Positions 3,560-30,619 are shown, counted from the first letter of the stretch. The stretch: 40,000 nt of DNA from Mesorhizobium sp. (GCA_004020645.1 SAQL01000025.1:45274-85273), one strand, 5' to 3'. Numbers and translations: made by a program. The notes: generated by a model not told the origin, from the letters alone.

Positions 3560-4018
3560 ATGAACGAGCATTTTGCGACGGCAACGGCCGCAATCCCTGC
3601 CCTGTTCGCCGAGCTTCACGTATCGTCACCGTTTCCCGCCAAGGGCGTGGCGGCACACCTGGGCAGGGCAGGGGTCTACGTGTTTTTTGAAGATAGCGTC
3701 CCCGTCCACGTCGGGCGGACGCGAAATCTGCAAGGTCGCCTTCGCGGCCATACCGCCAAAAGCCACTACTCCGCATCCTTTGCCTTCAAGCGCGCGCGCC
3801 GCCTCCTCGAGCGGACCGCAACCTATACAGCGGAGGGGTCACGTCTCGCCCTTTCGAGAGAGGACGTGTTCCGGGCAGAGTTCTATCGACAGATCGAGCT
3901 GGTGAAATTGATGAACGTCCGTTTCGTGGATGTTGCCGATCCGGTGGCCCAGTATCTGCTCGAACTCTACGCCCACCTGGAGTATGGCCTACTGTTGGAT
4001 GAGTTCGATACCCATTAG
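3560..4018 (+). CDS. GIY-YIG nuclease-domain protein
   Basis: GGAGGAGG at 3550-3557 precedes ATG 3560. The motif GVYVFFEDSVPVHVGRTRNLQGRLRGH matches the GIY...YxGxT.NL..R...H pattern, with a downstream conserved Glu candidate in LLELY. Confidence 0.6.
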   Translation: MNEHFATATAAIPALFAELHVSSPFPAKGVAAHLGRAGVYVFFEDSVPVHVGRTRNLQGRLRGHTAKSHYSASFAFKRARRLLERTATYTAEGSRLALSREDVFRAEFYRQIELVKLMNVRFVDVADPVAQYLLELYAHLEYGLLLDEFDTH

Positions 4019-4310
4019 ACCCGTGAAGGTCCACTATGGAGCCGATTCGGCGAGGTAATTGTGAAATCGTCTCAGGAAGCAGAAATATGGATATCTTCAA
4101 ATTTCGCGGCGGACTCCGCAGGGCACTGCTGGAGCAGGTCGACGAAATCCAGAATGCCAACGGCTGGTACAGATGGGATACGACTAGGCGCGGCAGATTC
4201 TATTGCCTATCGCTGCTGTTGTAGTTGCTTTTTCAAATAATCGTCGCGAGACTGTCGGCTTTTCAGGGCGAGGGGTCCCGCTCTTGGGGGGTGGTAATCT
4301 GTTCAGAGGG

Positions 4311-7300
4311 ATGCTTGTTGGCTTGCCTAGTCGAAAAGGAATAGGAAAGCTTGTGGCAGCGGCCGACGGGCGGTGCAAGATCTCGATTTTCTATTCCATT
4401 CAACGCACAGAGGAAGTCGAATATGATGTCGGCCAAGTCGAACGGGCTTTCCTCAGTCCGCAGACCCGTGCCTATGTTTTTAGTGAAGATCGGATGCGCG
4501 TCGGCCGTGTCACCGACTTTCTTCACAATGAGAACGGACTCATCACCTATGAAGTGAGCTTTCCGAATGGGAAACGCCAGGACTTCAGCGAAATAGATCT
4601 TTTCGTGCGGCCGTGGAACGCGCCGGAGGATCCCGCAGAAATCTTAGCCGCAGGCGGAGCCGAAAGTCAGTTTCTACATGATAGGCGTCAGTCTGCGATC
4701 GGCCCGCTTCGTGCCCTCACCAGCGCGTCGCAGGGTCTGACATCTCTTTTGTCCGCCGGAATTGACTTCGTGCCACATCAGGTGGCGGCCGTGCGACGCG
4801 TGCTGAGTGATCCTATCCAGCGCTATTTGCTCGCCGATGAGGTTGGCCTCGGCAAGACGATCGAGGCGGGCCTCATCATCCGTCAGCACCTCATTGATAA
4901 CGCCGAAACTAGAGTTCTAATCGCGGCGCCGGCGAAGCTGTGCGAGCAATGGCGCCGTGAGTTGAGCAAAAAGCTTCGCCTGGATCAGTTCGGTGCACCC
5001 TTTGAATGCTGCTCGCATGAAGATCTTGCGCGCGTCAGCCGGACACCAGACGTCTTGGTGGTCGATGAAGCCCACCATCTGGTCGGGTTTGAAGACGGCC
5101 CAATGGCCCAATCGGCCGCGCGCCTTCGTGAGCTCGCCCAGGATGCGCCGGTGCTGTTGCTGCTGTCGGCAACGCCGCCACTTGGCGATGAAGCAAAGTT
5201 CCTCGCGCTGCTCAATCTGCTCGATCCACTGACCCATCCCTTGGAGGACCTGGCCGGCTTTCGCATCAAGCTGGAACAGCGCCGTTCGATCGGGCGTGTC
5301 CTCCTAAGTCTCAATCATGACGCCCCCGGGCTTGTCCTTCGCCAGCGGGGCGCCGAACTTGTGAGATCCTTCCCGGACGATCCGATCATCCAAGTTCTTG
5401 CGCCGCAAATGATAGCCGCCACCCGCGACGCGCCGGGTGACCTGGCCGGGCTGTGTGGCGCGCTCAAGGAGCATATTGCTGACAGCTACCGCATTCATCA
5501 GCGGTTGATCCGGTCGCGGCGCGCCGATGCGCAGGGCTGGGAATTCAGGCCGCGCGGACCTGAGGTAGGGGACGAAACGAATCTGAGCCACGTTCGGACC
5601 GAGAGCGATCCCGCGGATCAAATGGAGACGCTGCTCGCGACATTGGAGGATTGGCGCTTCGCAGCTGTCGAGTCTCTTGCCGGCGACGATGGCGCACGCA
5701 CGCGCCTTTCTGAGCGCTACCGTGCGCTCCTGAGCGTAGTTGGAACGGACGCAACCGAGTTTCGCAACTGGCTCGCGCGCGCAGAGGTGTCGTTCGCTGG
5801 CGAAGGCGAAATTCTTTCCGCGCTTGCGGCTCAGGCCGAGGATTATGATGATGACGAACGTATCGATACCATGGTCGAAAGCAGCCGCCGGCTGTTGAAG
5901 ACGCTTGGGGAGGAGATTGCCGATCCTAGGATCGTGGTGTTTGCAACATCGGAACGCATAGCCGAGAATTTTCATGCTGCGGCGTCCGAGACGCTCGCCC
6001 TGGTGACGTGCCTTCTTCTTGCCGGGCCGGAGGACGACGATGTGGCCGAGCACTTTCGATGCGCCCCTGGGCCGACCATAATGGTGGCGGACAGGTCGGC
6101 GGAAGAAGGGCTTAATCTCAGCTTCGCTGATGCCATAGTCCATCTTGATCTGCCGCTTTCTGCTGCCCGTATCGAGCAGCGCATTGGGCGGCTCGACCGC
6201 TATGGCCGCCGCCAGGGCATGATCCGGCACCGCATCCTTGTGCCGTCTGATGATGACATTAGCCCATGGGCGGCGTGGTATGCGTTGCTCACGCAAGGGT
6301 TTCGTATCTTCAATCGGTCGATCAGCGACGTCCAATTCCTGCTTGACGACTTCGAGCACCAAGTTTTCGAGACGCTGCTGATGAGCGGACCGGAGGGGTT
6401 GGTCGGTCTCGCCAACGACATACGGGCGCGCATCGATGACGAGCGAAAGTCGCAGGACGAGCAATATGCGCTCGATCGCATCGCGCTTGCCGAGGAGCCG
6501 GTCGAGAGCTTCATCCAGACACTGGAAGACGCAGAGGCGGATGAGACGGCTCTCGAGAAGGATGTTGATCAGTGGCTCCTTGGGATTTTGCAACTGAAGA
6601 AGCGCCCCTTTGTCTGGCCCAGCGAGGATTCGTTCAAGCTTGCCGTGACCCCCCAAACACTAATCCCGAGACTGCCCTGGCAAGCCGAACTCAAACTGGA
6701 CGACAGCCAGCCGCTGACCTGGAAGCGGCGTATCGCGACCAGTCGCGCCGACGTCACACTGCTCCGGCCGGGAACCCCACTCGTCAATGTAATTGAGCGC
6801 TTCACCCGGTGGGACGATCGCGGCACCGCATTCATCACCTACCGCATTGTGCCCGACTGGCAGGGGGAGCCCTGGATTGGATTCAAGCTCTGCTTCACGA
6901 TCGAGCCCGCCCTCGATATTGCTGACTTGCTGGCGCCGACCCGTGGAGAACTCGCCGCCTCTCGCTGCGCACAACGCTATTTCGCAGCCAGCGCTCAGAC
7001 GGTCATCATCGACGTCAATGGCGACGACGTCTTCGATCCCGCCCTTCTGGGCATACTGGAGCATCCCTATCGGAGCGAGGGCAGGGGGTCCGACATCAAC
7101 CTGGGCAGCCGGCCACACTTGCTTGCGGAGATCATCGACCCGGGGACGTTCCCAAGAATCTGTCGCGATGCCCGTGACGGCGTCCGACAGCGGCTGGCGC
7201 GTCAACCCGAGGTCGCGGAGAGGATCGCGGAGGCCGCACGATCGGCGGAGATCGATCTGCAGCGACGGCAGAGCCGCCTGCAGCGCCGGCAATCCGCAGG

Positions 7301-7436
7301 CGATGCCATGGCTAGGGCCGATATCGCATTGATCGAAGCCATACTTCTCAGCATTCGCAAGCCTGCCATCCGGCTCGATGCGATGGGCTGCTTTGTCGTG
7401 GGCGCTAAAACAGCAGGAGCGCATTTCATTGGTTGA
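4311..7436 (+). CDS. dpdE: SNF2-family helicase, DpdE-like
   Basis: SNF2 motifs are present: I LLADEVGLGKTIEAG, II VLVVDEAHHL, III LLLSATPP, VI IEQRIGRLDRYGR. The N-terminus is Tudor/RapA-like. The start is taken at ATG 4311; the ORF is open from TTG 4203. It is the first gene of a dpdE-K-ordered operon. Confidence 0.8.
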   Translation: MLVGLPSRKGIGKLVAAADGRCKISIFYSIQRTEEVEYDVGQVERAFLSPQTRAYVFSEDRMRVGRVTDFLHNENGLITYEVSFPNGKRQDFSEIDLFVRPWNAPEDPAEILAAGGAESQFLHDRRQSAIGPLRALTSASQGLTSLLSAGIDFVPHQVAAVRRVLSDPIQRYLLADEVGLGKTIEAGLIIRQHLIDNAETRVLIAAPAKLCEQWRRELSKKLRLDQFGAPFECCSHEDLARVSRTPDVLVVDEAHHLVGFEDGPMAQSAARLRELAQDAPVLLLLSATPPLGDEAKFLALLNLLDPLTHPLEDLAGFRIKLEQRRSIGRVLLSLNHDAPGLVLRQRGAELVRSFPDDPIIQVLAPQMIAATRDAPGDLAGLCGALKEHIADSYRIHQRLIRSRRADAQGWEFRPRGPEVGDETNLSHVRTESDPADQMETLLATLEDWRFAAVESLAGDDGARTRLSERYRALLSVVGTDATEFRNWLARAEVSFAGEGEILSALAAQAEDYDDDERIDTMVESSRRLLKTLGEEIADPRIVVFATSERIAENFHAAASETLALVTCLLLAGPEDDDVAEHFRCAPGPTIMVADRSAEEGLNLSFADAIVHLDLPLSAARIEQRIGRLDRYGRRQGMIRHRILVPSDDDISPWAAWYALLTQGFRIFNRSISDVQFLLDDFEHQVFETLLMSGPEGLVGLANDIRARIDDERKSQDEQYALDRIALAEEPVESFIQTLEDAEADETALEKDVDQWLLGILQLKKRPFVWPSEDSFKLAVTPQTLIPRLPWQAELKLDDSQPLTWKRRIATSRADVTLLRPGTPLVNVIERFTRWDDRGTAFITYRIVPDWQGEPWIGFKLCFTIEPALDIADLLAPTRGELAASRCAQRYFAASAQTVIIDVNGDDVFDPALLGILEHPYRSEGRGSDINLGSRPHLLAEIIDPGTFPRICRDARDGVRQRLARQPEVAERIAEAARSAEIDLQRRQSRLQRRQSAGDAMARADIALIEAILLSIRKPAIRLDAMGCFVVGAKTAGAHFIG

Positions 7437-9915
7437 ACTGGACGGCCATGACGCCTTCAAGGCCTTGGCCAGGCTGCTCGAGTGCGCCGACGATGGGACG
7501 GCGTGGCGGGCAAAGTCGCCCTCTGTCGAGCGCCTGCGCATTGCGCTGACCGAACTGCCACAGCATGCCAGTGCCCTCGATCTGGCGGTGTTGTTGCGCC
7601 AAGCCATAAACCATGAGCGCACCCGGCGCGGCACGGCGGTGCCCGTCATCCCGGTATCGCATGCGCGCTTTTCCGATTTCCGGCACTGGAACAAGGTTGG
7701 GCTGAGAATGACGATCGCCGGGGAGGCCCGGTTGGTTTCTATCGAACCGTGGCACCCGGAGTGGCTGAGCGTAGAGGGCAACGAAGTCGACGCGTTTGCC
7801 GCCTCGGAAACAATACGCCGGGAGTTCAATGCCGCGGGCTGTGAGGGCGACCCGTTTCTGGCGTCAGTGCGGCGCACATCCTATCGCAGCCGGGGCCAGC
7901 GCGCCGCTGTACGTGCGGCGCTCTCCACCCCGGCGGGAGGAAGCCTCGTCGTCGCGCTGCCGACGGGCGAAGGCAAAAGCATGATCTTCCAGCTCATCCA
8001 GACCGTCGGATTCGTCGGCGCCGATCAACAGGAGAATCAGGGCACCACCTTGGTGATCGTGCCGACCGTGGCGCTGGGCGTAAATCACGAGCAGGAGGCG
8101 GTCGAGGTCTGCGGTCTTGCAAAGCCGCTCGCCTTTCAGGGCGGCAACGATGCCCAGAATGCCATCATAGCGGAGCGGATTGCCGCCGGAACCCAGGGAC
8201 TATGCTTCGCATCGCCCGAGGCCGCATGCGGGCGACTGCGCGATCCGCTTCGCCGGGCGGCTGAAGCGGGTTTGTTGCGAGCGCTGGTGATCGACGAGGC
8301 CCATCTGGTCGATCAATGGGGAACAGGATTTCGCACCGAGTTCCAGGAACTGAGCGGGTTGCGGCGCGAACTTCTCGGTGCTGCCCCGTCAGGCCAGGCA
8401 ATGCGCACGATCATGCTCTCGGCGACACTGACGGATTCCTCGCTGGAGACTCTGCGCGCGCTGTTCGGCGCCGAAAGCGATTTCGAAAGTCTGGCCGCGG
8501 TTCAACTGCGCCCCGAGCCCGATTATTGGATCGCGCCCGTCGCAAGCGAGGCAGCGCGGATCGATCAGGTTATGGAAGCTTTGCACCACGCGCCGCGTCC
8601 AGCAGTGCTCTATGTGACCGAGGTTGCCGCTGCAAATGCTTGGCATGCCCGCCTAGCCGCGGCGGGATTTCGGCGCATCAGCAAGTTGCACGGCAAGACG
8701 GCCCGGGCAGAGCGTGAGGAGATCGTTGGCGAATGGCGCGCCGGGGCCATCGACATTGTCGTCGGCACATCGGCATTCGGTCTGGGGATCGACTATGCCT
8801 ATGCACGGAGCATCATCCATGCCTGCATCCCCGAAACACTAGACCGATTTTACCAGGAGGTTGGCCGTGGCGGTCGCGACGGTAGGGCCGCGCTGTCGTT
8901 GATAGTCCCCACCGCGAAGGATTTCACTATAGCGAAGAAAATCAACGCCCAGCAGGTGATCAGCATCGATCGCGGCTTTGAGCGCTGGTCGACCCTGTTC
9001 GCGCGCAAAATCCGCTTTGGTGAGGGGCGCTTCGCCGTGCGCATCGACGGCCGGCCGGGCGCCGGCGAGCGCGATATCGACATGTTCGGGGAAACCAATA
9101 CGGACTGGAATCTGCGCACCGTCGCCTTGATGGCGCGGGCGGGGCTCGTGCGTCTGCTAGGGTCTCCTTATCCCCGCATCGCGGAGGAGGGCGACTGGCT
9201 TGAGGTCGAGATCATCGACGACCACCATCTCGACAAGGCGGTGTGGCTAAAGCGAGTCGAACCGGTTCGGCGCATTGGTTGGCTCGCGTCGATCCGCAAT
9301 CTCGATCTTATGCGGAAATTCCTCAGCGATGCGCATTGTCCCGCCTCCATATTGGAGGAACTGTATGGCAAAGTCGGCCGTACATGTAGTCGATGCAGCA
9401 TTTGCCGTTCGGACCCCGACCGCCGTCTCGCTACCCGGCCGGTTGGAGAGCCACGCGCTCCCTGGATCAAGCCACTCGATCCTTTGCTCGCGGACCTGTT
9501 CGACAAGGATTTGCGCCTACTCGTCACCTATGATCCCAACACTCTCCCGCGCACGGCTTCGCGCCGCCTGGGGGAAACCTTCCTTCGGCTGCAACAGGCG
9601 CGCCTTGCCAAGCTCATTCAAATGGGGGCACAGCCCTTCGACATGACAAGGGTCCTCAAATTCGCGGAGAAATCGGCGTTTTTTGTCAGCGACCTCAATT
9701 CGCTGGCGCTGTCGCGCCTCCCCAAGGGGCCCGAACTGGTCCTGGTGGGCGCCGGACAGACCCTCGAAACGCAAAATCTAAATCCGCGTCAAGATAATCC
9801 ACGCATCTTCATCGCCTCCCAGGAACAGTTGGCGCCGGACGGCCGGCGGCTCCGCGACGTCTTTGGTGGACGCGTGCTGACGCTCGATGAATTTAATGCA
9901 AGAGTAGCCCAATGA
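7378..9915 (+). CDS. dpdF: RecQ-like DEAH helicase, DpdF-like
   Basis: Motifs: ALPTGEGKS (I), LVIDEAHLVDQWG (II), MLSATL (III), YQEVGRGGRDG (VI). There is a Cys cluster, CPASILEELYGKVGRTCSRCSIC. ATG 7378 overlaps the dpdE end; TTG 7429 is an alternative start. Confidence 0.75.
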   Translation: MRWAALSWALKQQERISLVELDGHDAFKALARLLECADDGTAWRAKSPSVERLRIALTELPQHASALDLAVLLRQAINHERTRRGTAVPVIPVSHARFSDFRHWNKVGLRMTIAGEARLVSIEPWHPEWLSVEGNEVDAFAASETIRREFNAAGCEGDPFLASVRRTSYRSRGQRAAVRAALSTPAGGSLVVALPTGEGKSMIFQLIQTVGFVGADQQENQGTTLVIVPTVALGVNHEQEAVEVCGLAKPLAFQGGNDAQNAIIAERIAAGTQGLCFASPEAACGRLRDPLRRAAEAGLLRALVIDEAHLVDQWGTGFRTEFQELSGLRRELLGAAPSGQAMRTIMLSATLTDSSLETLRALFGAESDFESLAAVQLRPEPDYWIAPVASEAARIDQVMEALHHAPRPAVLYVTEVAAANAWHARLAAAGFRRISKLHGKTARAEREEIVGEWRAGAIDIVVGTSAFGLGIDYAYARSIIHACIPETLDRFYQEVGRGGRDGRAALSLIVPTAKDFTIAKKINAQQVISIDRGFERWSTLFARKIRFGEGRFAVRIDGRPGAGERDIDMFGETNTDWNLRTVALMARAGLVRLLGSPYPRIAEEGDWLEVEIIDDHHLDKAVWLKRVEPVRRIGWLASIRNLDLMRKFLSDAHCPASILEELYGKVGRTCSRCSICRSDPDRRLATRPVGEPRAPWIKPLDPLLADLFDKDLRLLVTYDPNTLPRTASRRLGETFLRLQQARLAKLIQMGAQPFDMTRVLKFAEKSAFFVSDLNSLALSRLPKGPELVLVGAGQTLETQNLNPRQDNPRIFIASQEQLAPDGRRLRDVFGGRVLTLDEFNARVAQ

Positions 9916-10820
9916 GTATTGTCACCACCGCACAGGCTGTCCCAAGTCGACTGTTCGCTATCTATGCGTCTCTTTTCGAGAGTGACGCTGGCGAGATCAA
10001 GGATCGAATCGAAGCCTGGGCGACGCCGCCGTCCCTGAGCGGTCGGGGGGCTGATGACGACGGCGAGTCCACCACGACCCTGTTCAGCAATACGCTGCTG
10101 GAGGCCCGGCGTCTCGGATTGGTCGAAGACATGGATGACAAGCTGCGCTTGACGGCGGACGCGCGTGGTGGCGGGAAGAGGGGCAGCGATAGTGAAGTCT
10201 ACTTTCTCGATTATATGTACCGCACCCTGTTCGATCCTGCGCGCGCAATCGAGACAAAGCATGCCGGCTTCATGATCGCGCTGGCCTGGTTCCTCAGTTC
10301 CAATCCGCTGCACCCGATGAATTTTTCCGTCCCGCCTCAGCGGACTTTGCAAGCCGAAATTGGCGAACATGCGTCGAAAACCGAAGTCACCTCGCTCAAC
10401 ACATATCAAAATTTTCTCTACTGGGCGCGCTATCTAGGTTTCGCGACAATCGTCGGCGGCCGTGATGCCGACGACCAAAATGCGCGCCGCGTCATCCCCG
10501 ATCCGGTTCGGGCGATCGAGGGCGCACTCCCTGCAATTTTTGCGGAAAGCAATGAACTGCCTATAGAGCAATTCCTGACGCGTCTCTCTGGCATCTTCCC
10601 GGTATTCGAGACGGGAAGCGTGCGCGAAGACTATGAGGCGATGCGCCGGATTCCCGTTCCCGATCGCGGGCAGCGCCTGTCGGTTACGACGAGCGTCGCC
10701 CTCCAGCGGTTGGCGGACCGGCAGCGGATCGTTCTCGCCAGCGTGGCGGACGCTCCCGCGCGGATCCTTGATTTCGGGATGCGTGAGGGCGGGGTGAGCC
10801 ATGTCGCGCTGAGGACCTAA
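9912..10820 (+). CDS. dpdG: Hypothetical protein in the DpdG position
   Basis: ATGA overlap with the dpdF stop (9912-9915). No motif recognised. The name is assigned only by synteny between the two helicases and the P-loop protein. Confidence 0.5.
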   Translation: MSIVTTAQAVPSRLFAIYASLFESDAGEIKDRIEAWATPPSLSGRGADDDGESTTTLFSNTLLEARRLGLVEDMDDKLRLTADARGGGKRGSDSEVYFLDYMYRTLFDPARAIETKHAGFMIALAWFLSSNPLHPMNFSVPPQRTLQAEIGEHASKTEVTSLNTYQNFLYWARYLGFATIVGGRDADDQNARRVIPDPVRAIEGALPAIFAESNELPIEQFLTRLSGIFPVFETGSVREDYEAMRRIPVPDRGQRLSVTTSVALQRLADRQRIVLASVADAPARILDFGMREGGVSHVALRT

Positions 10821-10825
10821 GCACG

Positions 10826-14552: not shown

Positions 14553-14560
14553 CCTCAGCG

Positions 14561-21806: not shown

Positions 21807-21974
21807 ATGACTTACGGGAACTGTTAGCTAGATCAGCGGCTCTTTGGGCGAATTGCGCTGTCGATATCAGATTCACAGGCGCGCAGACGTCTCACCGGAG
21901 ACGATTGCGGCGCCACGCGCGACAGTGAAGCCACGACTTCGCATCAGGAGCGTTGCGCCGCGCGAGAGCGAGCT

Positions 21975-22781
21975 TCATTGGGGTTGGCTGTGGAATTTGT
22001 TGGATTTCTGCGGAGGGTGACTTGCCTTCAGCACGATCGCCGGCACTTCGGCAAAGGACGAAACTGTGAAGTCCGGTTGAACCAGCTGGGGATCCGCCTC
22101 CCATCGCGGCTTGAAACCACCAGGATAGTAGATCGTTATCAACCCAGCCTCCTTAGCCGGACGGATATCCCGCTCGAGTTGGTCGCCGATCATATATCCG
22201 GGGGATGAAACACCCGGCAGCAATTGGACGCGCTTGTAGAGGCCCAAATGCTTGGGCGCCTCGATAATCCGATCGATATAATGGCCGATCCCCTGCGAGC
22301 GTGCTGTCCGCGCTGCCTTTTCCCGGGATCCCTCGGTGACAACAGTAATCAGACAACCAGCCGTATGCAGGGCATGAATACCTTCAGCCACTCCGTCACG
22401 GAGATCAGGCAAACGTTGAACGGCAGCGAGGAACGTTCTTTCGGCGGTTTCTGCTTCCAGGTCCCCAATCACTTGCCGCTCGGTCGCGCTCGTCCACGCC
22501 AATCTGGCCGCCTCCTGAGCGCGGACTCCAGTGAGCGCTAGTGCAATTGCCTTAGCCAAGTGGCGTGGTGGATAACGAAGGCCGGCGTGATGTCGCTCTG
22601 CGAGCATCTGATCCAGAGACCGAACGTACGCAAGCCTATCCTCGGGGATCGCTTCCCTCTTTAGAGCCCTTTCTACCAACCCTAGCAGTTCGAGTTGGGC
22701 AGACGCAAAGACGCGATCTGTATCCCACAATGTGTTGTCGGCATCGGTGAGTACGTTCGTTTTGACAACTGCTCCCCTCAC
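21975..22781 (-). CDS. HAD-superfamily hydrolase/phosphatase
   Basis: Motif I LTDADNTLWDT (DxDxT), motif II ITVVTEGS, motif IV GDQLERDI. The GTG start overlaps the stop of the upstream membrane-protein gene (GTGA at 22778-22781). Confidence 0.75.
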   Translation of the reverse strand: MRGAVVKTNVLTDADNTLWDTDRVFASAQLELLGLVERALKREAIPEDRLAYVRSLDQMLAERHHAGLRYPPRHLAKAIALALTGVRAQEAARLAWTSATERQVIGDLEAETAERTFLAAVQRLPDLRDGVAEGIHALHTAGCLITVVTEGSREKAARTARSQGIGHYIDRIIEAPKHLGLYKRVQLLPGVSSPGYMIGDQLERDIRPAKEAGLITIYYPGGFKPRWEADPQLVQPDFTVSSFAEVPAIVLKASHPPQKSNKFHSQPQ

Positions 22782-23800
22782 TGCGGAGCTACCTTGTCGT
22801 TTTGAATCGGCTTAGTCGCTGAAGGATCCTCGTTCGATCGATTGGTAGAATCCGGCTTTGGCTCGACCGCTTCTGCGCCGGTTCCAGTTGGGTGCACGTT
22901 CTCGACGACCTGGGCACTTTTCTCCATTGGCGTTGGCCCAACAAGGATGTTTACAAGTCCAAGAAGCGCCAACCAGACAAGGAGGCACCGAAGTCCGAAC
23001 GCAAGTGTGTTCTGCGCCGGTTCGAGATATCGTACCTTGTCTGCGACTTTTGCCGCTACCAGATAGCTCTCGCCAAGGTAGTTGCGCAGGTATCGAATAG
23101 AAAGATCTGGACGTAGGTGAACGGAATCTGACGTGGGCGCCGCTGTAACAAACGACGCAGCCCAAGCTGATGGGCGCACAGCAATAATTGCCGGGAAGAA
23201 AAGATGCGACTTTGGCTCGGCCAGTTCGCGTTGGAGATTATTGGGATCGGTTGTCGGAAATTTGAACCGCGTACGTGTGGCATGAAAAATGACCAATGCC
23301 CCACTAACTGCGCTCACCAGGAATATGGCGAAAACGAGATAAGTCAGCCCGATAAGAAATCCCTTGTATGACAAAAGCATGTTCATTGAGGGAAGTGGAT
23401 ATGCTTCATTGAAGCGCGCGAACAATACACCGGAGAGTGCGCTTAAGAACGTGGCGATTGTCAGGAGACGGAACGCTTTTTGATCTTGATATTCGGTAAG
23501 GTCCTTGACCTCGTCGAGTGACTCCCTGCCTCGCTGCAGAGCAGCCTTGAGGATCTCGCTTGGCGGTTGAATTCCCGAGCTACTTTTGTCAATTTCGCTG
23601 CCAGATGTGGTGTCAATGAGTTTTTCCGTTTCAGCTGCTATTTCCATTAGTATCTGCTCACTGGTGAGCGATACAGTACTTCGCGACTCGGTTAAGCGAG
23701 GAAAATGCTCGATGTCTGTCGACCAAAAGGCATTCCAAACGGCTCTCCAAGATGAAAGACTTTCCCCATTCTTGGCCATCTTGATTTGCATCCTCTTCAC
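22778..23800 (-). CDS. Multi-pass membrane protein, Pycsar-effector-like (PycTM/DUF5706-like) candidate
   Basis: At least three hydrophobic helices: FRLLTIATFLSALSGVLFARF, FLIGLTYLVFAIFLVSAVSGALVIF and LAFGLRCLLVWLALLGLVNILVG. YQDQKAFRLL before TM1 and SHLFFPAIIAV after TM2 resemble the DUF5706 pattern as I recall it (faDtKA...; s.iFF..ia). The gene is visibly AT-richer than its neighbours. Confidence 0.45.
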   Translation of the reverse strand: MKRMQIKMAKNGESLSSWRAVWNAFWSTDIEHFPRLTESRSTVSLTSEQILMEIAAETEKLIDTTSGSEIDKSSSGIQPPSEILKAALQRGRESLDEVKDLTEYQDQKAFRLLTIATFLSALSGVLFARFNEAYPLPSMNMLLSYKGFLIGLTYLVFAIFLVSAVSGALVIFHATRTRFKFPTTDPNNLQRELAEPKSHLFFPAIIAVRPSAWAASFVTAAPTSDSVHLRPDLSIRYLRNYLGESYLVAAKVADKVRYLEPAQNTLAFGLRCLLVWLALLGLVNILVGPTPMEKSAQVVENVHPTGTGAEAVEPKPDSTNRSNEDPSATKPIQNDKVAPQ

Positions 23801-23841
23801 GCAGCGGCTTTATGCGGGTACCGATCGCAGGTTTCCAGATT

Positions 23842-24408
23842 TCAAGCCGGCATAAGGCCCAGTCGACGATCTCGCGCGCGCAGCAATGCCAGGAATGGAA
23901 GGGCGGCCAACACCATCCAGGTCTTACCCACGACTTGTCCTGCCAAAAATTCAACGGAACCGAAAGCAAGGCCGAGAAACACGATGCTGTCGATAACAAG
24001 CCCCACCATACTGCTTGCGACGGCGGCACGGATGAATCCGCGACGCTGCAGCGGAGTGTAAACCGCTAAGTCTGCGATTTCCGACAACAGAAAAGCGACA
24101 GTGGAGGCGACGACCAGCGCTGGCGGCGCAAAACTCGCCGACAACAAGGCGCCGATCGCAATTGCGGCAGCCGTCCAACTTAAGCCAAGTCGCCGCTGCA
24201 CAAGGTCGCGCAGCACCAAGGCGAGACCTACCGCCAACACCCCGCTGGGAGCGTCAATTCCGGGCGCCACGGGGATCAGGCATGGACCATTTGGTACACA
24301 GGTTGTCCCAACATTCCCGATGAGCCAGTTCGCAAGCGGGATGCATCCAGCAAAGCACAAAGCGAACACGATTCCTTCCGTCCTACGGAGGCGATCGATC
24401 TCAGCCAT
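23842..24408 (-). CDS. VUT-family / YhhQ-like queuosine-precursor transporter candidate
   Basis: 188-aa polytopic membrane protein. It overlaps the queC stop by 8 nt. Composition and size fit the short COG1738/DUF165 proteins found in que clusters. Confidence 0.55.
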
Positions 24409-25162
24409 TGGACAACTCCTGCGTCAGCGGTAGCGTTGCAGTTCGCTTGGCGAACTGTCGATATCCCTTCGCGCGCAACTCGCATGCCGGGCACACGCCG
24501 CAGCCTCGTCCCCACTCATGGATGTTCCCGACTTCCCCATGGTAGCATGTCAAAGTGCTAGTGCGGATCAAGTTCACCAGGGCCGTCCCACCTAGTTCTT
24601 CGGCAAGGGTCCACGTCTGTGCCTTGTCTATCCACATAAGCGGAGTCTCGAGAACGAAACGACTCTCCATACCTAGGTTGAGGGCGACTTGAAGCGCTTT
24701 CACCGTATCGTCACGGCAGTCCGGATATCCGGAAAAATCGGTTTCGCAAACGCCAGTCACTATGTGCTTGAGACCTCGACGGTAGGCGACAGCAGCAGCA
24801 AATGTGAGGAAGATAATATTCCGCCCTGGCACGAAAGTGTTCGGCAAACCGGATTCTGTAGTCGCGATCTCAACGTCGCGCGTCAATGCCGTCTCGCTGA
24901 TTTCGCCGAGCACAGACAGATCGAGGACGCGGTCCTCGCCGAGTTTGGCGGCCCATTTGGGAAAATTGTGCTCCAAGCCAGCTCGGAATTCGCCCCTCGC
25001 GTCTAGCTCGGCGCGATGCCGCTGCCGATAATCGAATCCGATAGTCTCCACGCGCTCGAATCGATCGAGGGCCCAGGCAAGGCACGTCGCAGAGTCTTGG
25101 CCGCCGGAAAAAAGAACGAGCGCACTATCGGTTGCCTGTACTAGGTGTTGCGGGTCAGCCAT
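24401..25162 (-). CDS. queC: 7-cyano-7-deazaguanine (preQ0) synthase QueC
   Basis: PP-loop [17 protein letters not shown]-terminal Zn Cys cluster CYHGE...[10 protein letters not shown]. Start ATG 25162 overlaps the queD stop (ATGGCTGA). The ORF is also open from ATG 25198. Confidence 0.9.
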
Positions 25163-25505
25163 TGTACTCGGCCCAGCAGTTCGGGGTTTCGTAGACAACT
25201 ACCGCGGTCAGTGGCAAAAGCGGCCTAACCCGGTTCCAGATCCAAACCGCAATGTTCTCGGCCGTCGGATTGTTCAACCCCTCGACTTCGTTAAGGCAAT
25301 GATGGTCGAGTTGGGCGAGCAATGGATTAAACGCCGCCTCCACGTCGAAGAAGTCGACGACGAAGCCGGTATGAGAGTCGACAGGCCCCTCGAGGCGGAG
25401 TTCGATTCGATAGGAATGACCGTGCATACGGTGACAGCGGTGCGTCAACGGAACATGGGGCAACCTGTGCGCGGCCTCGAAGGTGAACGCCTGAGTTATT
25501 TTCAT
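25155..25505 (-). CDS. queD: 6-carboxy-5,6,7,8-tetrahydropterin synthase QueD
   Basis: [40 protein letters not shown] is the typical QueD/PTPS-like His/Cys motif set. ATG 25505 overlaps the queE stop (ATGA). The product is 116 aa. Confidence 0.9.
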
Positions 25506-26137
25506 CTGATTCCAAGTTGCTTGTGGGTTTGAAGGCTGAGTTGCCAACGAGGGTTCGCCAGGCAATAGGCGACTGCGTCCTGCGTATTAGATGCGCGATC
25601 AGGCCCATCCATTGGCTGGAGCAGGAAATGATCGAAGGCCAGCGCTTCAAAGCGCCGCGGTTCTGCGCCCACCTGCGGAAATACCAACTTGAGTTCGTTT
25701 CCGGTTTTAATCGCGATTTCAGTACCTGACTTTGGACTGACGCAAACCCAGTCGATCCCTGGAGGTGGCGTGAGCGTACCATTGGTTTCGACGGCGACCT
25801 CGAACCCTTTGGCATGCAAGGCGTCGATGAGAGGCGGGTCGATTTGGAGCAGCGGTTCGCCGCCTGTTAATACCACGAACCTGCGCTCAGAGAGTGACGG
25901 TGACCATTTCGCCTCAATGGCACTCGCCAGGTCATCGCATGTTGCAAAGCGACCACCGCCGTCGCCATCCGTGCCTACAAAATCCGTGTCGCAGAACTGG
26001 CACACGGCCTTCAGGCGATCGGCTTCCCTGCCGGACCAAAGATTGCACCCGGTGAACCGGCAAAAAACGGCCGCGCGTCCGGCCTGGCGGCCCTCACCTT
26101 GGAGAGTGTAAAACATTTCCTTAACTGCGTAACTCAT
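25502..26137 (-). CDS. queE: 7-carboxy-7-deazaguanine synthase QueE (radical SAM)
   Basis: The N-terminus is MFYTLQGEGRQAGRAAVFCRFTGCNLW. The cluster motif C-x14-C-x2-C (CNLWSGREADRLKAVCQFC) is of the Burkholderia-type QueE kind. Confidence 0.9.
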   Translation of the reverse strand: MSYAVKEMFYTLQGEGRQAGRAAVFCRFTGCNLWSGREADRLKAVCQFCDTDFVGTDGDGGGRFATCDDLASAIEAKWSPSLSERRFVVLTGGEPLLQIDPPLIDALHAKGFEVAVETNGTLTPPPGIDWVCVSPKSGTEIAIKTGNELKLVFPQVGAEPRRFEALAFDHFLLQPMDGPDRASNTQDAVAYCLANPRWQLSLQTHKQLGIR

Positions 26138-26143
26138 AGCTTT

Positions 26144-27232
26144 TCACGCTGCCCGTGCGGATTCGGCGAGGCGCCGCTTGAGGACCTGGACTAGGTGAAG
26201 TGATAGTTGGCGGACATCGGACGGAACGTTCTGGAGCCCATTCCAACGTCGGCGCTCAGCGCCGAACTCCCACTCGCCCTCGCTCCAAGCGGTCTTTCCC
26301 TGCAGTAGTCGCAAGCCACTCGCGAATTCGTCGCGTGTAGAAGCGCCTGTAACGCTGTTGAGAAAATCCATGACATAACCGAGGGCGATGATGCCCGTGC
26401 CATGGATCAACCGAGACGTTTTGGGCGTCTTACCGGACCAATCGTCTGCAAAGACGTGTTGGACTGCATGGTAGAACTCGCTCATCATTGTGACGCCCTG
26501 ATCAAGCAAAAGCTTGTCTTCGCCGGCGTAAAGGCGCAGAGCCCCGTCACTCAGCGAGTTCATGATAACCCGCTGCAGCACAGTGTCCCGGATGACCCCC
26601 TTTGGGTTGGTTTGCTGCTTGATCAAACCCCTTAGGGACGATCCCTTGCGATAGTTGAGCGCCTCTGTAGCCAGTGCCGCTTGTGATCGGCTTGACATGC
26701 GGTGCGGCAGATCTCCCACCTTTGGGAGCAGTTCGTACACTAGGGCCTTTGGCAACGGGCGCGTGTTATTCACAAGGATGAACTGTTTTTGCAATTCCTC
26801 CTCTGTCTCACAGAGGAAACCCGACACGAGCACTTCGAAGTCGCGGCCTCGCAGTTCCGAAAGCGCCGTAAAACGCTGTTGTCCATCAACGATCCAACCG
26901 GGCGGGCCCTTGGACGTATCTATGACCAGTTGGCAGAGGCGACTTTCCGGATTCGTCACTGGCTCTAACCAAGCTTGCCCCATGAAGGCGACCACGATGG
27001 CATTGGGCAAGATTGAGTTCGGCTTTTCGAGATAATCACGGATTTCGCGAATGTGGCCCGCGATCTGCGGCCGCTGGAAGCCCTGGAGCGCCCCCGCGTC
27101 ATCGCGACCCGCCCGTTCGATACGAGCAATGCGTGCGACTTCTGCAGCATTTGCAATGAAGGTGAAAACCGTCAGTTTCTCGCTTTGAACCGGTGCCAGC
27201 GCATCAAACCGAAGAAAATGTTGATTGTTCAT
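26144..27232 (-). CDS. DGQHR-domain (DndB/ParB-like) protein, DpdB/DpdC-type paralog 1
   Basis: Motifs GFQRPQIAGHIREIRDYL, ILPNAIVVAF, WIVDGQQRFTAL and QFILVNNTRPLP. ATGA overlap with the dpdA stop. Colinear with the 379-aa paralog. Confidence 0.75.
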   Translation of the reverse strand: MNNQHFLRFDALAPVQSEKLTVFTFIANAAEVARIARIERAGRDDAGALQGFQRPQIAGHIREIRDYLEKPNSILPNAIVVAFMGQAWLEPVTNPESRLCQLVIDTSKGPPGWIVDGQQRFTALSELRGRDFEVLVSGFLCETEEELQKQFILVNNTRPLPKALVYELLPKVGDLPHRMSSRSQAALATEALNYRKGSSLRGLIKQQTNPKGVIRDTVLQRVIMNSLSDGALRLYAGEDKLLLDQGVTMMSEFYHAVQHVFADDWSGKTPKTSRLIHGTGIIALGYVMDFLNSVTGASTRDEFASGLRLLQGKTAWSEGEWEFGAERRRWNGLQNVPSDVRQLSLHLVQVLKRRLAESARAA

Positions 27233-28518
27233 ATGCTCTCCTGCCGGAATTCGCTCAAGTGGGTGTGAAAGACGTGTAGGTTGTGGATTCCGCGTCGCTT
27301 GTTACGATTTGAGGTGCGGAAGATCACGGCCTCCACACCGCTCTCCCGACAAACTCGGCAGCTGCACCGCTCCCAGGGCCGATCGCCAAGGGTGTGGGCA
27401 TAGACCTTGCGCTGTCGGGTTGCGGCGTCCGCACGACGGCTCGGTGATGCCTCGTCGTGCCAGTTCAGGGCGGCCCAATAGTCCATCACGGCATCAAGGC
27501 TTTGGTCCAGGGTCGCGCCGCCGTCGGCATAAGCACGCACGCCGCGAAGCGCGGCATCTTCAAGACGCCTCGCGTCCTCCTGGTTGAGGCTGCCTTCCAG
27601 CGCCTTATGCTTGAGCTTGTTGTTCTGGGTAGCCTGCGGAATACGAATTGCGGTGTAGTATGAGAGATCGCCGTCGGCCGTCCGCACCCAGTAATTCTTC
27701 CGGGCGTCCTTGAAGGCACGCAAAAGCGGAGACGTCGTGTCGAAACTGGTGACGCCGTACTGTTCCAGCGCGGCCAGTTCCTCGATTTTGCCAAAGCCCA
27801 GGAGATGAAGTCGGATCCTGTCGGGGAGAGTCTCACGCAACGCTTGTAAGACACGGCGAATCTGATCGATCCTCAACGGCACAGTGCCGCCGATGGCTAA
27901 ATAGTCATATCCCATACTGGCCAGGTTGCGGGCAGCCTGCGCCATACTCTCAGCCGACCATCCCTGTATTACGCCCATTGGCGTGAAGCCTGGGCCTACG
28001 CCTGCGGCGGATTTGTAGAACTCGGTCGCATTCTGAAGAGTGATTTCGTAGCGACGACGCACATCCTCTGGCACGTCATCCATGGTCCGCGTCAAACCAA
28101 TGTCGTCAAAGTCAAAGATAAGGTGATCGGGCGAACAGCCGTGCGTGAAGCCGCCGTCAGCATAGAATTCCGCTGTGTCGTCGGCGCTATACGGCGGCTC
28201 CGGTAGATTCCGATAGGTGAAGGCGCCGCAGTCGCCCATCATCAGGCTTCCCGGAAATCGATCGAGCGGATAGCGCAGAAAGCGTCGGGCGCCCTCGCGA
28301 CGAAAGCGCATCGACTGTGCTTCCGAATATTTTCCTGGCTGCCGCGCATCGCCCACGATGGTGCGGGAAACCAAGATTCCGTCATACGGCGCCTGCTCTA
28401 GGAACTCGTGAGGGTACTGATCATCGCGGTGAACTGATCGGCCGGCGCCGTTGCGATCCGCGACGAAGTCATACTCAGGGTCGATCGTATCGACGCTGTC
28501 TGCGAACACGAACCGCAT
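27229..28518 (-). CDS. dpdA: DNA-guanine transglycosylase DpdA (TGT-like, tgtA5 family)
   Basis: 429 aa. The core is TGT TIM-barrel-like (MMGDCGAF, YLAIGGTVPL, LHLLGFG). The C-terminal signature is CSCRVC...IFRTSNRNKRRGIHNLHVF. It is embedded between DGQQR proteins and queCDE. Confidence 0.85.
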   Translation of the reverse strand: MRFVFADSVDTIDPEYDFVADRNGAGRSVHRDDQYPHEFLEQAPYDGILVSRTIVGDARQPGKYSEAQSMRFRREGARRFLRYPLDRFPGSLMMGDCGAFTYRNLPEPPYSADDTAEFYADGGFTHGCSPDHLIFDFDDIGLTRTMDDVPEDVRRRYEITLQNATEFYKSAAGVGPGFTPMGVIQGWSAESMAQAARNLASMGYDYLAIGGTVPLRIDQIRRVLQALRETLPDRIRLHLLGFGKIEELAALEQYGVTSFDTTSPLLRAFKDARKNYWVRTADGDLSYYTAIRIPQATQNNKLKHKALEGSLNQEDARRLEDAALRGVRAYADGGATLDQSLDAVMDYWAALNWHDEASPSRRADAATRQRKVYAHTLGDRPWERCSCRVCRESGVEAVIFRTSNRNKRRGIHNLHVFHTHLSEFRQESI

Positions 28519-29657
28519 CAGGCGACCTTTGCGAATGCGTGCATGTGATCGAGGCGCGCTAGGTGGCCAGACAACAGTTTGATGTCGCGTCCAACGTTCT
28601 GAATCTCATTCCAATCGCGCTGCAACTCCGCCCATCTGCCGTTGGTCCAGCGACAATATGGAGCGATCCGCGTCAGGGACTCCGTCGCGTGGAGTAGCAG
28701 GTCCGTCCCAGGCGCCGCTCGCGACATGATACGGTCCATCAAGAGGCTCATCGCCTCGACGCCCGCTGAGTGCATAAGCCGACTTTCGGTAGGTGGGCGA
28801 CCCCATGCCTCAGGAAAGACGCGACGGACAGCGGTCCAGTAAGCGACAAGTGCACGGTACATCGCATCCACGTCCGCGGGACACTCTGCTGTCGCCTTAT
28901 ACGGGGCGAGTGAGCCAAGGGCGCTATTGATGCTGTTGCGGATCGCCTTGATCAATGCCGAGTCAGTGACAACGGCGGTCGTGGAATCTTCAGAAAGCCG
29001 TTTGATAAGGCCTTGGAACGGAGAATCAGAAGAGGTTTGGAGCAGATTGACGAGTTCGCTTGGGATTTTCCGAGACGACAAGTCACGCGGAAAGGCTGTG
29101 TCTACTTCTGGAAGTAGTTCGTTGATCAGCCGAGGGTCGAGCGGTTTCGCCTTGTTGACCAAGATGAACTGTTCGCGATGGACGGACAATTCCTCTGACA
29201 CAAAGGCGACGACGGGAACGGGAAAGCTCTTGTTCTGAGCTTGAGACAGGGCAATCGAACGCTGTTGGCCATCGACAATCCAAGCCGCCTTTGGGCCGTC
29301 GTTTGGAAGTGGGATCCGCAATGTTCCCGCCTCACACGACCTTACGTCGCCGCCAGGCTTTTCGCCCCTTGTCTGGGTGAAACGTGCGCGCGGCGAGAGC
29401 GCGAGAATGATGGCGTTCGGGAAGAGCACGGGCCCCTGATCAAGGAACTCCGTGATCGCTTGGACGTGGCTCTTAATGCCCTTGCGCTGAAATCCGTGCA
29501 GAGACCCTTCGCCGTCCCGGTGAACGCGGCTGATCTCGGCAAACTTGAGAAGGTCGGCACCAGCGACAAAGAATGCATAGACAGCTTTATCAGCCTGTTC
29601 GGTGCGGACCGCGCGAACAGCGAGCGTTGCCTCCTTGGCCTTTCGCGGACGCGTCAT
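28518..29657 (-). CDS. DGQHR-domain (DndB/ParB-like) protein, DpdB/DpdC-type paralog 2
   Basis: Motifs GFQRKGIKSHVQAITEFL, LFPNAIILAL, WIVDGQQRSIAL and QFILVNKAKPL. Its stop shares one base with the dpdA ATG (TGATG). Its ATG overlaps the upstream stop (ATGA at 29654-29657). Confidence 0.75.
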   Translation of the reverse strand: MTRPRKAKEATLAVRAVRTEQADKAVYAFFVAGADLLKFAEISRVHRDGEGSLHGFQRKGIKSHVQAITEFLDQGPVLFPNAIILALSPRARFTQTRGEKPGGDVRSCEAGTLRIPLPNDGPKAAWIVDGQQRSIALSQAQNKSFPVPVVAFVSEELSVHREQFILVNKAKPLDPRLINELLPEVDTAFPRDLSSRKIPSELVNLLQTSSDSPFQGLIKRLSEDSTTAVVTDSALIKAIRNSINSALGSLAPYKATAECPADVDAMYRALVAYWTAVRRVFPEAWGRPPTESRLMHSAGVEAMSLLMDRIMSRAAPGTDLLLHATESLTRIAPYCRWTNGRWAELQRDWNEIQNVGRDIKLLSGHLARLDHMHAFAKVA

Positions 29658-30619
29658 GCGGCTCCCCTTTGCTCGATAGCGGCTCGGTAGAGACGACTAA
29701 ACCGCGATTGCTCGCATGCAACACCCTCTTCATCTCGAAGCGCACGGAGGATTCGTGCAATGCCTGATTGCGACCGAAGGCGCGCCAAAATTAGCTGAAC
29801 GATCTCCGCATCGTTGCGGCGTAGGCGGCGAGGGCGGTCAGGGGCCGCCACTCCTCCAATGGCAGCCTCTACGGCTGCATAATCGGCGTCTCGGTCATAA
29901 GCGTCGCGTTTGGTCGCCACCAACCGAACAAAGTGGAGCATGGCCCGCTGAGAAAAGTCGGCCCGGGTACCTGGAAGGATCGCATCCAACCGATCGTCGT
30001 AGGGCAGGACCGATGGCGCGAGTGTAACTGGTAAGGCCGATGCAAGAGATGCGCCGAAGATTCGCAGCCGCGCCAAGGCTTGAGGTCCCAGTTCACTCAA
30101 GCTCTTACCTACCATCTCGGCATATGGACGGGTAAGCGCGATGAGCACTCGCCCAGAACCTTGGCCGAATGCGTCGCCCCATTGATCCGAATACGCACCT
30201 GACATAAGGCTGGCAAACCAGGCGCCGGGATCGAACTCATCCGTTACCCGTGCCGCGACGGACTCAGCGTGCCCCCCGGACACAGTGAGCCCATAGAGTG
30301 GGACTTGCCGGTTTATATCCACCAGGCCCAACCCGGCAGAAAGGACGTAAAGCTTGGCCTCGGCGATATTTGCGGCCTGGGTCGCGAGTCCAAACCCTCG
30401 ACCAGCGTAGAGTGCGCCGGCGGAGGCCGCGAGCGGTAGCGCCCGCATCTTCGTGTTCCAAGCAGTCTGAATCACCTCCTGTGGACCCAGGCGCAAAGAA
30501 ACTGCTGTTGCCGCGAACGGCGCTCGCGCCATTTTTCGATGGGTGCAGATAGTAATCAGAGCTGCAATCGGCTTCGGGGTTGAGTGTTCGAGGGTTCGCG
30601 CAACTGCTGCCGGAGTCAT
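29654..30619 (-). CDS. Hypothetical protein, first gene of the dpdA/que operon; DUF6884/YaaA-like N-terminal pattern plus C-terminal HTH-like tail
   Basis: ALITICTHRK...ALYAGRGF...LYVLSAGLGLV...VPLYGLT resembles the DUF6884 pattern as I recall it (C..K...Y.G..F...ILSA..G...P.Y..T). The C-terminus, EIVQLILARLRSQSGIARILRALRDEEGVACEQSRFSRLY, looks like a resolvase-type HTH. Confidence 0.5.
   Translation of the reverse strand: MTPAAVARTLEHSTPKPIAALITICTHRKMARAPFAATAVSLRLGPQEVIQTAWNTKMRALPLAASAGALYAGRGFGLATQAANIAEAKLYVLSAGLGLVDINRQVPLYGLTVSGGHAESVAARVTDEFDPGAWFASLMSGAYSDQWGDAFGQGSGRVLIALTRPYAEMVGKSLSELGPQALARLRIFGASLASALPVTLAPSVLPYDDRLDAILPGTRADFSQRAMLHFVRLVATKRDAYDRDADYAAVEAAIGGVAAPDRPRRLRRNDAEIVQLILARLRSQSGIARILRALRDEEGVACEQSRFSRLYRAAIEQRGAA

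Follow-up and report, generated by a model that had tools for sequence, protein, structure and literature searches.

A Mesorhizobium Dpd system with two DpdB paralogues, and a nearby HNH nuclease/DGQHR gene pair found with DNA-modification islands

Introduction

The closest described counterpart of the locus analysed here is the Dpd system of Salmonella Montevideo (dpdA-K; PMC10164549, PMC5699537), in which the roles of DpdA, DpdB and DpdC have been reconstituted in vitro (PMC10164549). The DpdA reaction of that system requires ATP hydrolysis by DpdB and is abolished by mutation of either catalytic aspartate, and individual DpdA residues have been assigned roles as nucleophile and general acid/base, in base-pairing and in stacking (PMC10164549). 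The GATOR-GC survey reports 2,335 unique dpd islands, with 801 extra dpdB copies, QueD in 78 % and YhhQ in ~9 %, and an earlier review had already described dpd clusters with preQ0 genes and yhhQ among their members. Here we analysed a stretch of 40,000 nucleotides from Mesorhizobium sp. (GCA_004020645.1, SAQL01000025.1:45274-85273), referred to as the window. It very probably carries an intact, ordinary Dpd system, that is, a system for marking DNA with 7-deazaguanine and restricting unmarked DNA, within a mobile accessory region of Mesorhizobium. As a Dpd system it is of an already known kind, and dpd islands with additional dpdB copies or with que/yhhQ genes inside the cluster have been published. 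What is new is confined to a neighbouring pair of genes, encoding an HNH nuclease and a DGQHR-domain protein, that travels with DNA-modification islands.

Results

A Dpd island in two convergent gene arrays

Two convergent, densely packed gene arrays were identified in the window (Table 1), with the order dpdE-F-G-H-(I)-J-K-D on the plus strand (4311-21806) and dpdC-dpdB-dpdA-dpdB'-queE-queD-queC-yhhQ-like-PycTM-like-HAD on the minus strand (30619-21975). The majority of gene junctions overlap or are separated by <10 bp, indicating that the arrays are operons, and the open reading frames (ORFs) of both are all full length. Apart from DpdI, the Dpd families exceeded their curated NCBIfam cutoffs by wide margins (scores are quoted as bits/curated cutoff). 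Seven of seven restriction genes (dpdD, E, F, G, H, J and K) passed at the level of equivalog cutoffs and all matched PADLOC Dpd models. PADLOC otherwise agreed with NCBIfam and added DpdC, for which its model has no curated cutoff. All catalytic and NTP-binding motifs that were checked were intact. RefSeq entries from unclassified Mesorhizobium are identical to these proteins and name them DpdA, DpdB (both paralogues) and DpdK, in keeping with the alphaproteobacterial type proposed in the first-pass annotation of this DNA, a reading made from the sequence alone.

That annotation had proposed a complete Dpd-type island in two convergent operons, and the NCBIfam and PADLOC models bear this out. 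Together with Pfam they identified every element that it had placed on the minus strand, namely a DpdA flanked by DGQQR proteins along with queE, queD, queC and a YhhQ-like transporter, and each motif that it quoted was recovered (DGQQR in the two DpdB proteins, Walker A in DpdH, DEAH in DpdE and DpdF, DEVH in DpdJ and HxK in DpdK). It was also right that no DNA methyltransferase is present, there being no methyltransferase domain in any ORF scanned with domain and defence-system models. Its gene list covered most genes but left DpdC (321 aa) and DpdD (719 aa) unnamed. The dpdE-K domain series was confirmed, with two amendments: the phospholipase D (PLD) nuclease is the 175-aa DpdK and not the last large ORF, and the DpdI match is weak. 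At the proposed left edge (3560), nothing ties the 152-aa ORF found there to Dpd.

Scans for other features returned little. A Rfam scan of the whole window gave no match, and hence no preQ1 riboswitch, and a tRNA scan of the window gave none, and hence no tRNA integration site there. A repeat search returned short chance-level matches only, with no direct repeats bounding the island.

DpdA and its two DpdB partners

The 429-aa DpdA was compared with models of tRNA and archaeosine tRNA-guanine transglycosylases (TGTs), a check that the first-pass annotation had proposed, and the outcome was clear. Against 540 bits for the DpdA model, the TGT models gave 31.3/306.75 (TIGR00430), 32.7/350 (TIGR00432) and 39.6/47.6 (TIGR00449), all below cutoff. 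The protein aligned end to end with the solved structure of S. Montevideo DpdA (7UI4; E 5e-90). In an alignment of 48 sequences, comprising the window protein, 7UI4 and 46 relatives, nine of the ten active-site residues checked were kept: S. Montevideo Asp95, Phe99, Asp130, Gly182, Gly206/207, Leu236, Asp256 and Phe265 correspond to D96, F100, D131, G186, G210/211, L240, D260 and F269 of the window protein. D96, D131, D260, F100 and L240 were retained in the window protein and in 45-47 of 47 relatives. The tenth residue, His181 of S. Montevideo, is Gln185 in the window, with Q in 43/47 relatives; Gln likewise occupies this position in bacterial tRNA TGT, so Gln185 seems to be a trait of the clade and not a defect. 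Identical DpdA was present in 88 index blocks of the assembly collection and on 46 contigs by exact-sequence look-up.

The two DpdB paralogues on either side of dpdA both keep the FQR and DGQQR motifs and are 32 % identical to each other. Among 48 species-level loci recovered with DpdA, the module order dpdC-dpdB-dpdA-dpdB-que was conserved in 34, and both paralogues were co-present as positional orthologues in 34/48. Conservation across related loci was 63-96 % for paralogue 1, 68-96 % for paralogue 2 (the range of its orthologues in alphaproteobacterial loci) and 68-95 % for DpdA. Since orthologues of both occur in 34/48 loci and are conserved to about the same degree as DpdA, these comparisons indicate that the duplication is old and maintained, and not peculiar to this window. 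The dpdB-dpdA-dpdB order was also seen in Pseudomonas putida, Pseudomonas aeruginosa, Stenotrophomonas maltophilia and Bradyrhizobium, whilst the downstream paralogue alone was retained in five Sphingomonas-type loci. On a Caulobacter plasmid both genes are annotated as DpdB by the NCBI pipeline PGAP, as are the Mesorhizobium RefSeq proteins. A PDB sequence search with DpdB found no relatives. Most likely, if speculatively, the two paralogues both serve DpdA, for example as a hetero-oligomeric ATPase.

DpdC, preQ0 supply and accessory genes of the modification operon

DpdC was recognized by its PADLOC model at 245 bits (E 2e-73) with a nearly full-length alignment; the match to Pfam DUF6884 was below cutoff (22.9 bits against 30), and the RefSeq name of the protein is hypothetical protein. 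Downstream of the second dpdB, access to preQ0 appears to be provided for within the operon, which contains queC, queD and queE and a Vut_1/YhhQ-like permease. The true start of queD is probably at 25505, giving a protein of 116 aa, which is also how the gene is called in sibling contigs. The YhhQ-like protein scored 36.1 with TIGR00697, below the cutoff of 50.95, and has orthologues at 70-79 % identity in 8 of the 48 related dpd loci.

The operon closes with a translationally coupled pair of genes overlapping by 4 bp, encoding a PycTM-like membrane protein and a HAD-family hydrolase. PF18967 is precomputed for many of the >235 homologue clusters of the former, and the latter showed only sub-threshold likeness to CTE7 and YjjG nucleotidase models. 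The pair recurs in three other dpd loci (L017, L034 and L042) and in Ensifer (L067), where it occupies exactly the same position in the dpd operon. In Bradyrhizobium cosmicum (L066) an integrative element carries it next to a DndB-like gene; dpdA was not seen there within 8 kb.

The restriction operon

The start of dpdE was placed at 4311, which gene callers and HMM alignment favour over the longest ORF from a TTG at 4203, and the protein contains GLGKT and DEAH motifs. DpdH has a Walker A motif (GTTGSGKS) and matched Pfam AAA_22. The HMM match of DpdJ begins at residue 67, so the true start is probably the ATG near 14561. DpdK contains an HAK motif. For dpdD, gene callers place the start at 19665, giving 713 aa. 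The gene that lies where dpdI is placed canonically, flanked by dpdH and dpdJ, encodes a protein that had no PADLOC or Pfam match and is named hypothetical protein in RefSeq. Its weak match to the DpdI model is colinear and full length, with residues 3-236 aligned to model positions 2-239 and both protein and model 239 long.

An HNH nuclease/DGQHR gene pair beside Dpd and Dnd islands

Approximately 2.2 kb beyond dpdC, on the opposite strand and outside the interval proposed in the first-pass annotation, are two genes that overlap by 8 bp, the first encoding an HNH endonuclease and the second a third DGQHR-domain protein. The HNH protein scored 24.6 with HNH_5, below the cutoff of 27.5; nine homologues share its CxxC, (D/E)H, N and CxxCN motifs, and comparison with PDB sequences gave a match at the HNH motif only. 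The third DGQHR protein fell below both cutoffs when compared with the DpdB model (50.9/300) and TIGR04172 (36.3/450). A PDB sequence search with its family found no relatives, and an AlphaFold model of the intact protein (predicted local distance difference test score, pLDDT, 84) had weak sulfiredoxin fold matches only.

The genomic context of the pair was sampled in 7 contexts found by protein search, 48 genome loci and 80 metagenome loci. For all seven sampled homologues of the third DGQHR protein (30-60 % identity), the immediately preceding gene is an HNH gene, and a dpdC-dpdB-dpdA-dpdB or que module is a few kb away at most. Of the 48 genome loci recovered with DpdA, 7 carried the pair. 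The 80 metagenome loci came from a profile scan, and an HNH gene was directly upstream in 72 of the 73 with enough upstream sequence. Close relatives in this set (at least 42 % identity, n=13) included nine with dpd or que genes; none were seen on the other four, which are contigs of 2.5-5.5 kb. Dpd or que genes also accompanied 13 more distant pair loci. No dpd genes were present at ~19 long loci with distant pairs (25-33 % identity), and in four of six such dpd-free loci that were sampled, Dnd genes adjoin the pair, encoding DndB, a cysteine desulfurase (DndA-like), a PAPS-reductase-type DndC and an SMC-like DndD. With close relatives beside Dpd and distant relatives beside Dnd, the HNH/DGQHR pair accompanies two kinds of DNA-modification island whose chemistries are unrelated. 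The literature searched held no description of the pair in a Dpd context.

In S. maltophilia (L061) and two Sphingomonas loci (L036 and L039), the pair was the only nuclease-encoding unit seen beside the dpd modification module. In the S. maltophilia locus (LR134324.1), two separate HNH/DGQHR pairs adjoin a dpdC-B-A-B-que module; a Peptidase_U49 (Lit-like) gene follows downstream, and dpdD-K are absent within 10 kb.

The consensus of the third DGQHR family is FIIDGQHRLKG, in which IDG is at least 90 % conserved. The window copy has a 12-bp in-frame deletion at ~34071 (atcatcgacggg) that removes the I-I-D-G of IIDGQHR, whilst sibling contigs that are otherwise 99-100 % identical retain IIDG. 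The deleted allele (393 aa) was found on 6 contigs and the intact allele (397 aa) on 40.

Table 1. Features of the window, ordered by position (scores as bits/cutoff unless stated otherwise)
Feature	Coordinates	Strand	Evidence or remark
xopAG-like effector fragment	1294-1845		left flank
Insertion sequence IS6 transposase remnant	~1960-2464		left flank
dpdE, SNF2-type helicase	4311..7436	+	NCBIfam DpdE 941/500; PADLOC 1051 bits
dpdF, RecQ-like helicase	7378..9915	+	NCBIfam DpdF 802/550; PADLOC 836 bits; GEGKS, DEAH motifs
dpdG	9912..10820	+	NCBIfam DpdG 144/80; PF28110 DpdG precomputed for identical protein
dpdH, P-loop NTPase (BrxC-like)	10826..13849	+	NCBIfam DpdH 549/450; PADLOC 1828 bits
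dpdI-like, divergent	13833..14552	+	NCBIfam DpdI 27.7/150, below cutoff, E 2.5e-6
dpdJ, YprA-like DEVH helicase	14393..19141	+	NCBIfam DpdJ 1773/800; GSGKT, DEVH motifs
dpdK, small PLD-family nuclease, 175 aa	19141..19668	+	NCBIfam DpdK 207/100; PADLOC 196 bits
dpdD, 719 aa	19647..21806	+	NCBIfam DpdD 521/300; PADLOC 966 bits; PF28109 DpdD precomputed
HAD-family hydrolase, last gene of minus-strand operon	21975..22781	-	Pfam Hydrolase 44.5/26.4, HAD_2, Hydrolase_like
PycTM-like membrane protein, paired with HAD gene	22778..23800	-	weak PADLOC PycTM match, E 1.6e-4
YhhQ-like (Vut_1) putative preQ0 transporter	23842..24408	-	Pfam Vut_1 41/27.2
queC, preQ0 synthase	24401..25198	-	TIGR00364 209/150; SGGQDS motif
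queD, 6-carboxytetrahydropterin synthase	25155..25565	-	Pfam PTPS 127/22.4
queE, radical-SAM 7-carboxy-7-deazaguanine (CDG) synthase	25502..26137	-	TIGR04508 queE_Cx14CxxC 352/240; Cx14CxxC at residue 31
dpdB paralogue 2, downstream of dpdA	26144..27232	-	NCBIfam NF041060 DpdB 383/300; DGQHR 166/59
dpdA, DNA-guanine transglycosylase	27229..28518	-	NCBIfam NF041059 DpdA 540/200
dpdB paralogue 1, upstream of dpdA	28518..29657	-	NCBIfam NF041060 DpdB 451/300
dpdC, predicted preQ0-DNA to ADG-DNA hydrolase, first gene of minus-strand operon	29654..30619	-	PADLOC DpdC
270-aa uracil-DNA-glycosylase (UDG)-like protein	31894-32706	+	no own Pfam match; family >240 clusters
HNH endonuclease	32820..33719	+	Pfam HNH 24.2/21.4
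Third DGQHR-domain protein, HNH partner	33712..34893	+	TIGR03187 DGQHR 71.3/58.85
AbiEii toxin gene of AbiE (DUF6088/AbiEii) pair	35204-36316	-	in-frame stop at ~codon 169

Flanking regions and other genes of the window

Positions 1-20820 of the window are 100 % identical to contig SAPI01000026.1 of GCA_004020055.1. The left flank (1-2464) holds the 3' end of sctD and needle genes of a type III secretion system (T3SS), ~86 % identical to Mesorhizobium symbiosis plasmids. Between this flank and dpdE are two plus-strand ORFs, at 2468-3232 (254 aa) and 3560-4018 (152 aa), found only in near-identical Mesorhizobium contigs. The 152-aa product gave sub-threshold GIY-YIG and T5orf172 matches (E 0.004-0.02), and given this narrow occurrence its membership of the island is unsupported.

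The right flank contains the AbiE pair, as well as an Xth-like nuclease and an ATP-dependent ligase common to conjugative rhizobial plasmids. The AbiEii gene, interrupted in the window, is intact (370 aa) in a sibling contig (L002). Between dpdC and the HNH gene lies the gene for a 270-aa UDG-like protein. Only 3 of 36 members of its family touch a UDG model (best E 3e-4) and a PDB sequence search with the family found no relatives; the top 30 PDB fold matches of its AlphaFold model (pLDDT 95) all belong to the uracil-DNA-glycosylase superfamily (SMUG1, family 4 UDG and UdgX), with a best E of 1.5e-3 and TM-scores up to 0.47. The invariant GxxPGP..Q and HPS motifs of the family resemble UDG motifs A and B. 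We rejected this gene as a member of the Dpd island: its homologues are widespread, it was carried by 0/48 dpd loci outside Mesorhizobium, and the one distant context sampled (Agrobacterium rubi) is without dpd genes.

Discussion

Predicted working of the island

For the mechanism, our analysis supplies the family membership of the proteins and the conservation of their residues, and the remaining steps are drawn by homology from the S. Montevideo work. QueD, QueE and QueC would make preQ0 from the product of host FolE, and the YhhQ-like permease may import salvaged preQ0. DpdA together with DpdB would then exchange specific guanines in double-stranded DNA for preQ0 by ATP-dependent transglycosylation, with Asp260 as the predicted nucleophile and Asp96 as the predicted general acid/base by analogy with S. 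Montevideo DpdA. DpdC would hydrate the nitrile to the amide, leaving dADG (2'-deoxy-7-amido-7-deazaguanosine) as the main mark with a little 2'-deoxy-preQ0 (dPreQ0); as DpdC is present, dADG is the expected product, as in S. Montevideo. DNA without the mark would be restricted by DpdD-K, a set comprising helicases of SNF2, RecQ-like and YprA-like type, a BrxC-like NTPase and a PLD nuclease, together with three proteins to which no fold is assigned. To our knowledge, genetic evidence for the Dpd restriction phenotype comes from Salmonella alone.

Several observations weigh against an intact and ordinary Dpd system. The DpdI-like score (27.7 bits) is far below the curated cutoff of 150. No folE was found in the window, the gene presumably being encoded elsewhere in the host. 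When 21500-31400 and 2400-4400 were scanned for promoters and terminators, no signal exceeded the level expected from shuffled sequence, and the 168-bp gap between the converging operons showed no terminator. Among sibling strains, DpdD is truncated to 598 aa in two contigs (L003 and L005), and in a third (L004) an IS element with a DDE transposase lies between the HAD gene and dpdD. These truncations and the insertion indicate that selection on the restriction arm is not uniform across this Mesorhizobium population.

Other readings of the island

It is rather unlikely, in our view, that the island is chiefly a stabilisation (addiction) or exclusion module for a symbiosis-type mobile element rather than a phage defence of the cell. 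On that reading, a cell losing the element would no longer modify its DNA but would retain restriction activity for a time. The island does sit amid mobile-element cargo, with T3SS genes, the IS6 remnant and the effector fragment to the left and the AbiE pair and ligase/Xth genes to the right, and identical proteins are found on ~46 contigs of many Mesorhizobium assemblies. Such a role would be compatible with defence too, however, and the variable decay of dpdD in sibling strains speaks against a strictly addictive one.

We also regard it as quite improbable that the modification arm alone works, with dpdD-K as a non-functional remnant and the mark serving, for example, as protection against other nucleases. 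Modification-only dpd islands exist in the GATOR-GC survey, the Ensifer (L067) and S. maltophilia (L061) loci have a modification module with no dpdD-K within 8-10 kb, and the sibling strains with a truncated dpdD or an IS insertion would fit a decaying arm. In the window, however, none of the eight restriction genes is shortened, all but DpdI exceed the curated cutoff for their family, and the helicase, Walker and PLD motifs are retained.

A further reading, in which the helicase/PLD operon is DISARM or Druantia and the TGT-like gene encodes a normal tRNA-guanine transglycosylase within a cluster for queuosine salvage, is refuted by the model scores: DrmD, BrxH, DrmC and DruE models do give secondary matches consistent with shared ancestry, and YprA-family helicases link Dpd, DISARM and Druantia, yet, as the comparison suggested in the first-pass annotation brought out, Dpd models score several-fold to tens-fold higher per protein (DpdE 941 bits versus DrmD 173/610; DpdK 207, PADLOC 196, versus DrmC 30; DpdJ 1773 versus at most 55 for DruE; DrmA a weak secondary match), no DISARM cutoff is reached, DpdA far outscores the TGT models, and the methyltransferase expected of DISARM is absent among the ORFs scanned.

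A possible role for the HNH/DGQHR pair

Returning to the pair beside the Dpd system, we suggest tentatively, and at somewhat less than even probability, that it is an unnamed accessory nuclease module for DNA-modification islands generally, with one clade associated with Dpd and distant clades with Dnd, resembling a split SspE/GmrSD-like enzyme. The ParB-like DGQHR protein may sense modification status or bind DNA, thereby licensing the HNH nuclease. Where dpdD-K are lacking, as in the S. maltophilia and Sphingomonas loci above, the pair could be the actual restriction arm. The IIDG deletion would make the minority allele of the window a natural loss-of-function variant.

Significance

As a Dpd system the island adds little: the family has been described, partly reconstituted in vitro and catalogued in thousands of genomes, and its proteins are already named in RefSeq. 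The novelty and interest claimed for it in the first-pass annotation were overstated, given those RefSeq names for the exact proteins and the coverage of the extra genes by the survey and the review. Its practical value is modest and lies in a self-sufficient version, with preQ0 synthesis, a transporter and the dpd gene set, in a culturable rhizobium. Being located on a horizontally spreading region beside symbiosis-type T3SS genes, it is usable for asking whether Dpd limits rhizobial gene flow. What residual value there is rests with the second DpdB and the HNH/DGQHR companion pair. The more useful lead is comparative, namely the occurrence of this pair with both Dpd and Dnd, which makes it a small candidate modification-linked nuclease, and the sibling strains offer natural intact and motif-deleted alleles of the third DGQHR gene.

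Comparison with known systems

All eleven gene families of the S. Montevideo system are represented in the window, DpdI by a weak candidate match; the two loci share a modification module plus a dpdD-K restriction module, and a full-length DpdA homologous to 7UI4 with conserved catalytic aspartates. The differences are mostly of content and arrangement. The window has two DpdB proteins flanking DpdA, whereas the Salmonella reconstitution used a single DpdB, and its modification operon additionally holds queE, queD, queC and the YhhQ-like, PycTM-like and HAD genes. The operons converge, and dpdD follows dpdK at the end of the restriction operon. DpdA His181 is replaced by Gln, the HNH/DGQHR pair lies 2.2 kb from dpdC, and the host is a rhizobium with the island in a mobile region containing T3SS genes, not at the leuX site.

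The plasmid of Caulobacter sp. S6 (NZ_CP073079, locus L001) has the same dpdC-dpdB-dpdA-dpdB-queE-queD-queC order, at 74 % nucleotide identity over 3.7 kb, but carries a different helicase/AAA set, 25-35 % identical to DpdF/DpdH, and no canonical dpdD-K. A different helicase/AAA/hypothetical set in place of dpdD-K, 23-36 % identical to DpdF/DpdH, was seen beside double-DpdB modules at this and many other loci (L009-L012, L016, L020, L022, L024, L032 and L034), and may be an alternative restriction arm. DISARM and Druantia resemble the window in their SNF2-type (DrmD/DpdE) and YprA-type (DrmA, DruE, DpdJ) helicases and in the small PLD nuclease (DrmC/DpdK); here, in contrast, there is no methyltransferase, and the self mark would be a 7-deazaguanine inserted by a transglycosylase.

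For the gene pair, the nearest parallels are enzymes of the GmrSD/SspE/BrxU type, which likewise combine a ParB/Srx-fold DGQ(H/Q)R domain with an HNH nuclease, a resemblance of domain logic only. SspE, which reads host DNA modification in the form of phosphorothioate, and BrxU are like the pair in the same way. The GmrS motif resembles DGQHR domains (PMC4619093), and HNH fusions to the ParB-CTPase fold have been listed as uncharacterised (PMC12704722). The window differs from these enzymes in having two separate overlapping genes, HNH first, instead of a single polypeptide, and in the domain types involved: its DGQHR protein is of the DndB type and not DUF262, its HNH domain belongs to PF01844/PF14279 and not DUF1524, and neither DUF262 nor DUF1524 matched the pair proteins. 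The name of TIGR04172, 'DNA phosphorothioation-associated DGQHR protein 1', fits the Dnd neighbours of the distant pair relatives, whereas the window protein's own clade (at least 40 % identity) occurs with dpd rather than dnd genes.

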